Position numbers and translations under genes: made by a program. A stretch of DNA of 64,000 bases from an uncultured Coprococcus sp. Lineage in GTDB: Bacteria; Bacillota; Clostridia; Lachnospirales; Lachnospiraceae. Position 1 is the stretch's first letter, and the number at the start of each line of letters is the position of its first letter. The stretch is from NCBI GenBank assembly GCA_947626675.1, contig CANQTC010000011.1, positions 7,535 through 71,534 on the forward strand, given 5' to 3'. Below the pieces are notes generated by a model. It was not told the DNA's origin. It did not search any database and was given only the letters and a program-made list of their open reading frames with translations. Positions 47,544 to 51,809 of the stretch are shown piece after piece.

Positions 47544-47714
47544 TTATTCCTCTGATATAGTACCAACAGGGCAAGCACCAGCACATGAACCACATGAAAT
47601 GCACTGTGAACCGTCAATTACGAATACACCGCCATTATCACTGATAGCGCCAACAGGGCATGAACCTGCACATGAACCACATCCGATACATGAATCTCCA
47701 ATAACAAATGCCAT
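47544..47714 (-). CDS. 2[4Fe-4S] clostridial ferredoxin
   Basis: CIGCGSCAGSCP and CISCGSCAGACP; 56 aa; AAGGAGG RBS. Confidence 0.95.
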   Translation of the reverse strand: MAFVIGDSCIGCGSCAGSCPVGAISDNGGVFVIDGSQCISCGSCAGACPVGTISEE

Positions 47715-47802
47715 AGATATGTCCTCCTTCTGAGTAATATTAATCATAAATATATTTTAAAACAAAATGTGTCATATATCAAGTATTAATAAAAAATTTC
47801 AT

Positions 47803-48558
47803 CTATTTACCTAATTCTTCGCGGCGTTCTTTCATAGCGCCAAGAATAATTTCTTTTGCTTTAATCGCATCATCATTTGTAAGCGGTTTCGTATCTTTCA
47901 GTGGATAATCGATACCAAGCTTTTCATACTTTACAACACCCATATTGTGATAAGGAAGTACCTCGAGCTGCTTCACATTGTTAAGCTCAGCCATGAAGTA
48001 TCCCACACGTTTCAGATATTCAGGCTTGTATGTGATGTCAGGAACGATAACATGTCTGATACGAATGGCATTCCCTTTCTCGTCAGCATATCTTGCAAAG
48101 TCAAGTATATTGTCAAGCGGCTGTCTGGTAAGCTTTTTATGCTCATCCGGGTCAATATGCTTAATGTCAAGCATGATAAGGTCTGTAACCTTAAGAAGTC
48201 TGTCGTATTTTGCCAGAATATCAGGATTATTCCGTCTGAACATGATTCCTGATGTGTCAAGGCAGGTATGAATACCACGTTTCTTTGCAGCTTCAAACAG
48301 TTCTATCAGAAAGTCGATTTGCATCAGGGGTTCTCCGCCTGTAGCAGTAATACCGCCATTGGTATAAAAAGGTTTTAAAGATTCGTATTGTTCAAGCAGT
48401 TCATCTACGGTTTTTTCTTCTCCGCCTTTCATATCCCATGTATCGGGGTTGTGGCAATACATACATCTCATAGGACAGCCCTTGAAGAATACGACAAAGC
48501 GCATTCCCGGACCATCTACTGTACCGCAGGTTTCTATTGAATGAATGTGTCCTACCAT
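47803..48558 (-). CDS. pflA: Pyruvate formate-lyase activating enzyme (radical SAM)
   Basis: HSIETCGTVDGPG, GCPMRCMYCHNPDTW, TGGEP, LPYHNMG; RBS before ATG 48558. Confidence 0.96.
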   Translation of the reverse strand: MVGHIHSIETCGTVDGPGMRFVVFFKGCPMRCMYCHNPDTWDMKGGEEKTVDELLEQYESLKPFYTNGGITATGGEPLMQIDFLIELFEAAKKRGIHTCLDTSGIMFRRNNPDILAKYDRLLKVTDLIMLDIKHIDPDEHKKLTRQPLDNILDFARYADEKGNAIRIRHVIVPDITYKPEYLKRVGYFMAELNNVKQLEVLPYHNMGVVKYEKLGIDYPLKDTKPLTNDDAIKAKEIILGAMKERREELGK

Positions 48559-48640: not shown

Positions 48641-48883
48641 TTACATTGCTTCGTGGAATGTTCTTGAGATAACATCTGCCTGCTGTTCCGGTGTAAGCTT
48701 AATGAAGTTTACTGCATAACCGGAAACACGAATTGTAAGCTGTGGATAGTTTTCAGGATGCTTCTGAGCATCAAGTAAAGTATCACGGTTTAATACATTT
48801 ACATTGAGATGGTATCCGCCTTCTTCAACATAACCATCTAACATATTTACTAAATTATCTACCTGCTGTGTACTAGCTGCCAT
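48641..48883 (-). CDS. grcA: Stand-alone glycyl-radical domain of PFL (GrcA-like)
   Basis: [29 protein letters not shown]; own GGAGG RBS; 80 aa. Confidence 0.92.
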
Positions 48884-48897
48884 TATTCTAATCCTCC

Positions 48898-49113
48898 TTA
48901 ATCTTTATATAATTCTTCGTCCATTCCTTCCATCAAAGTGGGAACGCTGCATGCTAAATCCCCCTTTGCGCAGTCAAGACATCCTAAAGTTTCTTCGGTC
49001 TTCTGGCCTGCTGCAACGGTTTCATCAACGGAAACATTAACGTGACCATGACCGTTACCCATCATGTTATCTAACATCGCAACAATGTCATTTACCTGAT
49101 TTTTGTCTGCCAT
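48898..49113 (-). CDS. 71-aa Cys-containing paralog of the radical-domain N-terminus
   Basis: Own GGAGG RBS and stop; 11/24 ungapped identity to the neighbouring GrcA-like N-terminus; tail [12 protein letters not shown]; no RVSGY. Confidence 0.8.
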
Positions 49114-49139
49114 AATAAACCTCCAAATATAATAAACAA

Positions 49140-51596: not shown

Positions 51597-51809
51597 ATGG
51601 CAAAGCAAATTAGCAAAGATATGCTTATTAACGATATTATAGAGGTTGATGCAGGAAATGCGGCAATCCTTATGGCAGAGGGAATGCATTGCATAGGATG
51701 TATGGCGGCAGCGGGCGAAACGCTCGAAGAAGCAGCAGGTGTTCATGGACTTGAAGCAGATGACCTGGTTGCAAAAATCAATGAGTACCTTGCAAAGAAG
51801 GAAGCTTAA
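51597..51809 (+). CDS. DUF1858 / hybrid-cluster-associated redox disulfide domain protein
   Basis: ISKDMLI..GMHCIGC..ETLEEA..VHG. Confidence 0.85.
   Translation: MAKQISKDMLINDIIEVDAGNAAILMAEGMHCIGCMAAAGETLEEAAGVHGLEADDLVAKINEYLAKKEA

Follow-up and report, generated by a model that had tools for sequence, protein, structure and literature searches.

In a 64,000-nucleotide stretch of DNA from an uncultured Coprococcus sp. (here called the window, meaning the whole stretch that was analysed) pyruvate formate-lyase (PFL) is encoded in two pieces, and a 71-codon reading frame, here called X, lies between them. PFL is the most widespread glycyl radical enzyme in microorganisms according to a 2026 review, in which YfiD/GrcA is the only small partner or spare part given for formate lyases and split PFL is absent (PMC13450708). 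The question raised by the locus is whether X is a leftover of the radical-bearing subunit that it partly resembles, a stand-in for that subunit, or a component of the enzyme in its own right.

The split PFL locus

PFL is divided inside its Gly_radical domain, as the PF01228 match is shared between the core and the 80-aa protein (Table 1). The core, whose NCBIfam name is formate C-acetyltransferase, matches TIGR01255 over positions 1-667 of 744 (1061.8 bits), retains the Cys-Cys pair of the active site and has a tail, FVGDIDIDLSK, without Cys. Besides the split PFL the assembly, which is 80% complete, has two glycyl radical enzymes, both of them NrdD, and no second PFL was found in the genome. 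The NrdD paralogs are at G000:C2:223804-226017 and G000:C11:75198-77384, one of them about 4 kb past the end of the window on the same contig.

The start codon of X is the ATG at 49113-49111 and its stop codon the TAA at 48900-48898, which is followed without a gap by the GGAGG (48897-48893) of the radical subunit gene. The GGAGG ribosome-binding site that the preliminary description had assigned to X itself is present. The core, X and radical subunit genes occupy different reading frames, so X is not a read-through product, and joining of the three by read-through, frameshifting or an intein was ruled out by the differing frames, the variable intergenic lengths and the separate ribosome-binding site of each. 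Two further identities for X were considered and rejected. It is not placed like a RiPP precursor, as no SPASM/RRE-type maturase adjoins it, the only radical SAM gene is that for an ordinary PflA (TIGR02493 above cut-off) and the best sactipeptide-maturase match at the locus is 30 bits against a cut-off of 625. By inspection its sequence does not fit a lipobox or formylglycine (CxPxR) motif.

In its longest reading pflA starts at an ATG at 48675, encodes 290 aa and shares 35 nt with the 3′ end of the radical subunit gene. The family model match begins at the internal ATG at 48558, which is likely to be the true start. A small 2x[4Fe-4S] ferredoxin is encoded downstream of pflA in many such operons (L041, L046-L048, L051, L052, L054, L060 and others) and probably replaces flavodoxin as electron donor of the activating enzyme. 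A homolog of the DUF1858 protein, by TIGR03980 a 'hybrid cluster protein-associated redox disulfide domain' protein, is encoded beside the operon at 12 of 25 fetched X-type loci, in addition to the window, and at 1 of the 11 X-less ones. The protein may be a redox partner, or its position may be no more than synteny; as a partner specific to X it was rejected, the association tracking phylogeny and not being tied to X.

Table 1. Coordinates of X, its parts and the neighbouring genes in the window
Feature	Position	Strand	Basis or remark
X, 71-aa small protein, accessory to split PFL	48898..49113	-	ORF; no Pfam family
Ribosome-binding site of X, GGAGG	49120..49124	-	6-nt spacer to ATG, from sequence
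X anchor module, residues 2-33, helix and strand	49015..49110	-	paralog of radical subunit N-terminus
X Cys module, residues 44-65, G-C-x-D-C-x6-A-C-S-V-P-T-L-x-x-G-x-D and acidic tail	48919..48984	-	conservation; C-terminal-half profile
PFL catalytic core, 681 aa	49140..51185	-	PF02901 2e-210; PF01228 positions 1-51 of 106
Glycyl-radical subunit, 80 aa, GrcA3 type, RVSGY	48641..48883	-	NF038360 161.6 bits, cut-off 158; PF01228 positions 50-106
PFL-activating enzyme PflA, 251 aa from internal ATG	47803..48558	-	TIGR02493 289.7 bits, cut-off 231.75; no SPASM-type match
2x[4Fe-4S] ferredoxin	47544..47747	-	Pfam Fer4 families; NF058577; synteny
DUF1858 / TIGR03980 'redox disulfide domain' protein (HCIGC), divergent upstream	51597..51809	+	PF08984 8.6e-16; TIGR03980 9.8e-23

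An N-terminal module shared with the radical subunit

The ungapped 24-residue alignment of X with the radical subunit, from which interest in X arose, does have 11 of 24 residues identical on recounting, and BLASTP gives 19 of 61 identical (E 1e-5). When family profiles are compared by hhalign, residues 2-33 of X are placed on residues 3-34 of the radical subunit over 32 columns (96.5% probability, E 9e-10), and nothing beyond residue 33 is homologous. The preliminary description of X as a radical-less paralog of the glycyl-radical subunit is thus apt for residues 2-33 and for the loss of RVSGY, but does not extend to the rest of the protein, where the homology stops and where X has a 12-residue stretch and an acidic tail. 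The glycyl-radical fingerprint, RVxG[FWY], is in none of X and its 143 aligned relatives and is present in the neighbouring 80-aa protein; being without RVSGY, the Gly loop and the C-terminal helix, X cannot carry the radical.

Residues 9-80 of the radical subunit align to residues 683-759 of E. coli PFL and, via GrcA3, the N-terminal module of X maps to the E. coli PFL helix from about residue 683 and to strand beta10. The beta10 region of PFL is what is supplied by the small proteins GrcA (YfiD of E. coli; TIGR04365, PDB 6OWR), GrcA2 (NF008341) and GrcA3 (NF038360). X is like these in that its N-terminal 32 residues are homologous to GrcA3 and in being encoded with PFL and PflA; it is unlike them in missing the three radical-domain elements just named and in having an arm with cysteines (Cys arm) that is absent from every GrcA. 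Against NF038360 it scores 17.1 bits where the cut-off is 158 (E 0.004), through its N-terminal 38 residues only, and apart from this weak match NCBIfam has none for it. No Pfam match, including to Gly_radical PF01228, was found at E up to 1, and a PDB sequence search with the family profile of X gave chance helical matches only. AF2 with an alignment of 143 sequences predicts a helix at residues 4-19 and coil elsewhere (pTM 0.39).

X as a conserved family

Homologs of X form 151 clusters at 90% identity in a word-indexed search, with lengths of 55-94 residues, all of them 'hypothetical' and from Lachnospiraceae and Coprococcus-type genomes; an exhaustive profile search gave 218 representatives at 50% identity. 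Long profile matches (P0122, P0125, P0179, P0229, P0267) are repetitive coiled-coil proteins, and were taken as compositional and discarded. In a profile search of one genome per genus, where related genomes are not independent of one another, a full-length match is present in about 110 of 400 Lachnospiraceae genera, and there are matches in other Clostridia families also. Among close relatives the median dN/dS of X, where computable, is about 0.24 as against 0.10 for GrcA3, with dN of 0.1-0.5 and synonymous sites mostly saturated. The claim that X has homologs under purifying selection is borne out by the clusters and, with that saturation, by the dN/dS.

The same data bear on the thought that X is a decaying, functionless relic left when part of the radical subunit gene was duplicated, which its being a partial paralog adjoining its presumed source might suggest. 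Conservation in about 110 of 400 genera and in other families, invariant residues, a ribosome-binding site of its own, the dN/dS of X (even with dS saturated) and its survival at sites unlinked from the operon are all at odds with decay. This reading, to which next to no credence can be given, is contradicted by the conservation data.

What is conserved is at both ends of the protein. The N-terminal segment of the family reads [IV]-D-[DE]-[IL]-V-x-M-L-D ... G-x-G-H-x-N-V and is followed by a hydrophilic linker, and the C-terminal motif reads (C-x-x-)C-x4-6-[A]C-x-[VI]-P-[TN]-L-x-x-G-x-D-[DE], after which the protein is acidic to its end. C55 and P58 are the same in all 143 diverse sequences aligned, and D15, G23, H24, C48, A54 and T59 are at least 90% conserved. 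Of the three cysteines of X for which conservation had been proposed, two therefore qualify, C55 and C48, but C45 is confined to closer relatives (present in 62% of a set weighted in their favour). Among 116 diverse representatives 78 have two Cys and 33 have three, and the spacing of the pair varies (CC, Cx2C, Cx4C, Cx6C). In these representatives the strand His and the core Cys are a median of 30 residues apart (28-33 in 77 of them), which is as far as His25 is from Gly55 in the radical subunit. A linker of this length fits an arm that could reach the place of the Gly loop if its anchor were seated as beta10 is.

Occurrence with split PFL

In 25 fetched loci and in metagenome contigs the genes run core, X, GrcA3, and those for PflA and ferredoxin usually come next. 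Placement of X between the two PFL halves, as originally described, is accurate for the window but not for three genomes (G291, G068 and G040) in which X is unlinked; in each of these the split PFL is encoded elsewhere in the genome. At two of these unlinked sites (L053 in G291 and L059 in G068) X is followed by a gene for a YitT-like membrane protein, and the order in the PFL operon is core, PflA, GrcA3. Comparison by eye of the lists of X-positive and GrcA3-positive genomes showed a GrcA3-type match (E <=1e-44) in all X-positive genomes except one, where X is at the end of a 1.9-kb contig. Every X genome checked thus has a split PFL, though not always adjacent, and the co-occurrence proposed at the outset stands in that form.

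The GrcA3 cut-off is passed in 134 of 401 Lachnospiraceae genera sampled; judged by this profile criterion, a third of the genera sampled encode PFL in pieces. Extra GrcA3 genes away from any PFL core were also seen, for instance at L080 (G148:C1:5036700-5044800), and over 30 genomes have two GrcA3-type matches on different contigs. A role for the extra unlinked genes as spare radical cartridges fits with this.

A Cys arm on X or on the tail of the core

The tails of X-type cores are without Cys in 26 of 26 cases and end F-x-G-D-[LI]-[DE]-x-[DE]-L. Split PFL without X is common, and its core is longer, with a C-terminal tail of its own in which there is Cys. From 45 such cores, about 22 end C..(A)C.[IV]P[NT]L..G.D, 12 have EPDCACCEPN-type tails, 4 have other Cys pairs, 3 have no Cys and 4 are unreadable; Cys is on the core's own tail in about 38 of the 41 readable ones. 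A profile made from the C-terminal halves of X only (Z = 3000) recognises the same motif as that of X in at least 13 of the Cys-tailed cores (E 3.5e-10 to 5e-3), and no unrelated frame among 6136 came below E 0.1. In other Clostridia families the full-X profile (alignment A5) matched two PFL-core tails, through positions 43-71 and 46-70 (E 2e-7 and 7.6e-7 per genome), and inspection showed the motif in five more core tails there; outside Lachnospiraceae, in what is a small sample, the tail form predominates. The fused forms were identified by reading loci and not by the word-indexed search, which gave one 166-aa protein only as a longer fused form of X. The second core-tail type, F-E-L-E-P-D-C-A-C-C-E-P-N, seen in twelve X-less split PFLs (L101, L104, L106-L111, L114, L116, L123), is not recognised by the X profile.

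In a tree of PFL cores the X and tail layouts are interleaved, and at least 5 changes are forced by well-supported branches. The arm is thereby shown, as far as profile matches and tree can do so, to be homologous to the core tails, with repeated interchange of the two layouts; change from X to tail by deletion would be the simplest single event. The unsplit 774-aa PFL of L136 (G132:C26:147790-149030) has a three-Cys insertion, T-C-G-C-E-E-V-T-C, exactly at the split junction, and three other unsplit relatives, L135, L137 and L138, have no insertion there. In one lineage (L062 in G014 and L065 in G036) X ends after G-C-T-x-C and the otherwise invariant A-C-x-V-P-T-L is lost; in L075, from a sister species of that lineage, the arm is fused to the core. 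No Cys at all is present in L072, L128 and L131. With the core Cys lost in the one group and all Cys absent in the other, the arm is not indispensable for split PFL.

From these comparisons we conclude that the Cys motif, and not the part resembling the glycyl-radical domain, is the portable and family-defining part of X and probably its conserved working part, and that the arm would act at the junction of core and radical domain. Fusion of the motif to the core has repeatedly gone with loss of the N-terminal part, which therefore has the look of an anchor, and the interchange of layouts at least 5 times on the core tree suggests that this anchor is dispensable once the arm is covalently attached.

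Cysteines so placed call metal to mind. The class III ribonucleotide reductase (RNR), NrdD, has a Zn(Cys)4 site just before its Gly loop, and the position of the arm between barrel and Gly loop parallels it. X might on that account be a junction module whose Cys bind Zn or an Fe-S cluster and so organise the radical domain for activation, and the three Cys of X in the window and in 33 of 116 diverse relatives, together with the CxCx5C, Cx2Cx6C and CxCC patterns of the tails and of the unsplit G132 insertion, would suit such a site. Most members have two Cys, however, and their number (1-4) and spacing vary widely, as would seldom be seen at a fixed site; X matches none of the metal or Fe-S families of Pfam and NCBIfam, and the radical subunit has no Cys with which to complete the site. 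The small Cys-containing Fe-S subunits of other glycyl radical enzymes, beta and gamma of benzylsuccinate synthase and gamma of 4-hydroxyphenylacetate decarboxylase, differ from X in holding [4Fe-4S] by four ligands and in being unrelated in sequence, whereas X has 2-3 Cys at variable spacing. Metal binding is accordingly considered improbable.

What the anchor may be for

The resemblance of the anchor to the docking end of the radical subunit allows two readings in which that docking, and not the cysteines, is primary. In one, which is unlikely, X is a placeholder or competitor that would take up the beta10 position on the core whenever the radical subunit is missing or has swung out. Its Cys loop would then occupy the place of the Gly loop and cap or shield the empty active site, until an activated radical subunit displaces it. 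Retention in the anchor of the conserved helix and strand residues of the radical subunit (L-D, G-x-H-x-N-V), a strand-to-core-Cys distance that matches the strand-to-Gly distance of the radical domain, and the prediction that X alone is largely unfolded, as for a segment that folds on binding, are in its favour. X and the radical subunit are translationally coupled, however, and presumably co-produced, and where the core itself carries the arm there is no second helix and strand, so slot filling is not the conserved function.

The other reading takes its cue from E. coli, where a second copy of this segment matters. Cleaved PFL deleted for residues 696-733 showed undetectable binding of YfiD and activation about 30-fold lower (Andorfer et al. 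2021, PMC8683613), indicating that the second copy has a role there. The oxygen-cleaved E. coli enzyme is comparable to the locus with X in having a second beta10 copy alongside a radical-bearing small protein, with the distinction that its 696-733 segment is the leftover of a cut chain and X is a dedicated gene with a Cys arm. As residues 2-33 of X correspond to this recognition segment, X may help GrcA3 to dock or to be activated, providing a 'duplicate beta-strand' that promotes docking or PflA-dependent activation. The Cys arm is nevertheless kept in fused-tail species that have no duplicate strand, and recognition leaves the invariant Cys without a role, so that, as with a metal site, this is improbable as the main task of X.

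A proposed tethered dithiol arm

The reading that is preferred, with a probability put at roughly 45%, is that X would be a genuine third component of split PFL, in which a GrcA3-like anchor carries a redox-active dithiol arm at the junction of core and radical domain. Residues 2-33, as a copy of the helix and beta10 docking end, would attach it non-covalently to the enzyme, and from there a linker of constrained length would lead to the functional part. This would be a short flexible arm with the Cys pair, C-x4-6-(A)C-x-(V/I)-P-(T/N)-L-x-x-G-x-D, and an acidic end, the counterpart of which would be the C-terminal core tail in other species and the junction insertion in the one unsplit PFL. 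The arm could reach the cavity that has the Gly loop and the Cys-Cys active site, and there might keep the active-site thiols reduced, or return them to that state, as the core is reused with fresh GrcA3. Alternatively, it might take the radical off the enzyme.

The model for such an arm is the C-terminal tail of class I and II RNR. RNR and glycyl radical enzymes are widely regarded as sharing a 10-stranded barrel with a thiyl-radical finger loop, and the C-terminal Cys pair of NrdA shuttles reducing equivalents between thioredoxin and the active-site Cys. The flexible acidic C-terminal tail of NrdA ends in a close Cys pair (C754/C759 in E. coli; the K-12 genome reads ...DDGCESGACKI), and tail-type PFL cores similarly read C-[SE]-[NS]-G-A-C after an acidic stretch. 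On motif reading, and with AF2 predicting coil at low confidence, a Cys pair is present in a flexible C-terminal tail of either the core or X. It is because the NrdA pair services the active site of a barrel widely regarded as structurally related, and the arm is likewise short, flexible, acidic and C-terminal, that the redox-active dithiol is favoured. The parallel is one of function and not of shown homology; unlike the RNR tail, the arm is sometimes on a separate polypeptide and has the additional P-T-L-x-x-G-x-D.

Several points weigh against the dithiol arm. PFL forms no active-site disulfide per turnover and, in contrast to RNR, oxidises no Cys pair in each cycle, which makes what the arm would reduce a matter of conjecture. 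The CESGAC resemblance is of six residues and may be convergent or due to chance, and a simple dithiol does not explain the strongly conserved P-T-L-x-x-G-x-D that follows the Cys. A few lineages are without the core Cys or any Cys. An anchor in the beta10 slot would compete with the radical subunit, and the model is silent on when each is bound. Structure prediction gives low confidence for both arm and tail: when the core of L070, which has a natural tail, was modelled by AF2 (alignment A4), pLDDT was <30 in the tail. Prediction of the complex of core, radical subunit and X (alignments A2, A3 and A1) gave ipSAE of 0.00 in both runs, these being runs without controls, and speaks neither for nor against the arm.

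A more ambitious and correspondingly more doubtful extension of the dithiol arm would make split PFL a three-part machine, with a reusable core, a disposable GrcA3 cartridge and a built-in dithiol arm, on X or on the tail, that reversibly quenches the radical or re-reduces oxidised active-site Cys.

Standing of X and significance

The initial suggestion that X is undescribed agrees with the search for a searchable paper, Pfam family or NCBIfam family for it, which found none. In the ESM Atlas it matches only 'hypothetical' clusters, and none of the papers searched names GrcA3 or GrcA2. What this analysis adds is the complementary counts of X and tails, the statistical link between tail and X, the junction insertion of an unsplit PFL, the match in linker length, and the parallels with the NrdA tail and cleaved PFL. 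From its sequence and distribution X is probably a third, hitherto undescribed, part of a fermentation enzyme that is very common in the gut.

Nearly all split PFLs inspected carry the conserved Cys arm, whether on a separate 70-aa protein or on the tail of the core. If the arm controls installation, quenching or repair of the radical, understanding of the oxygen tolerance and regulation of PFL would be changed, and the arm would offer both a simple testable system, of three small genes that might be rebuilt in E. coli, and a blueprint from nature for engineering glycyl radical enzymes with a 'spare part'. Should the three-part reading be true, the main pyruvate-cleaving enzyme of strict gut anaerobes would have a thiol-based protect-and-repair switch like that of the RNR tail.
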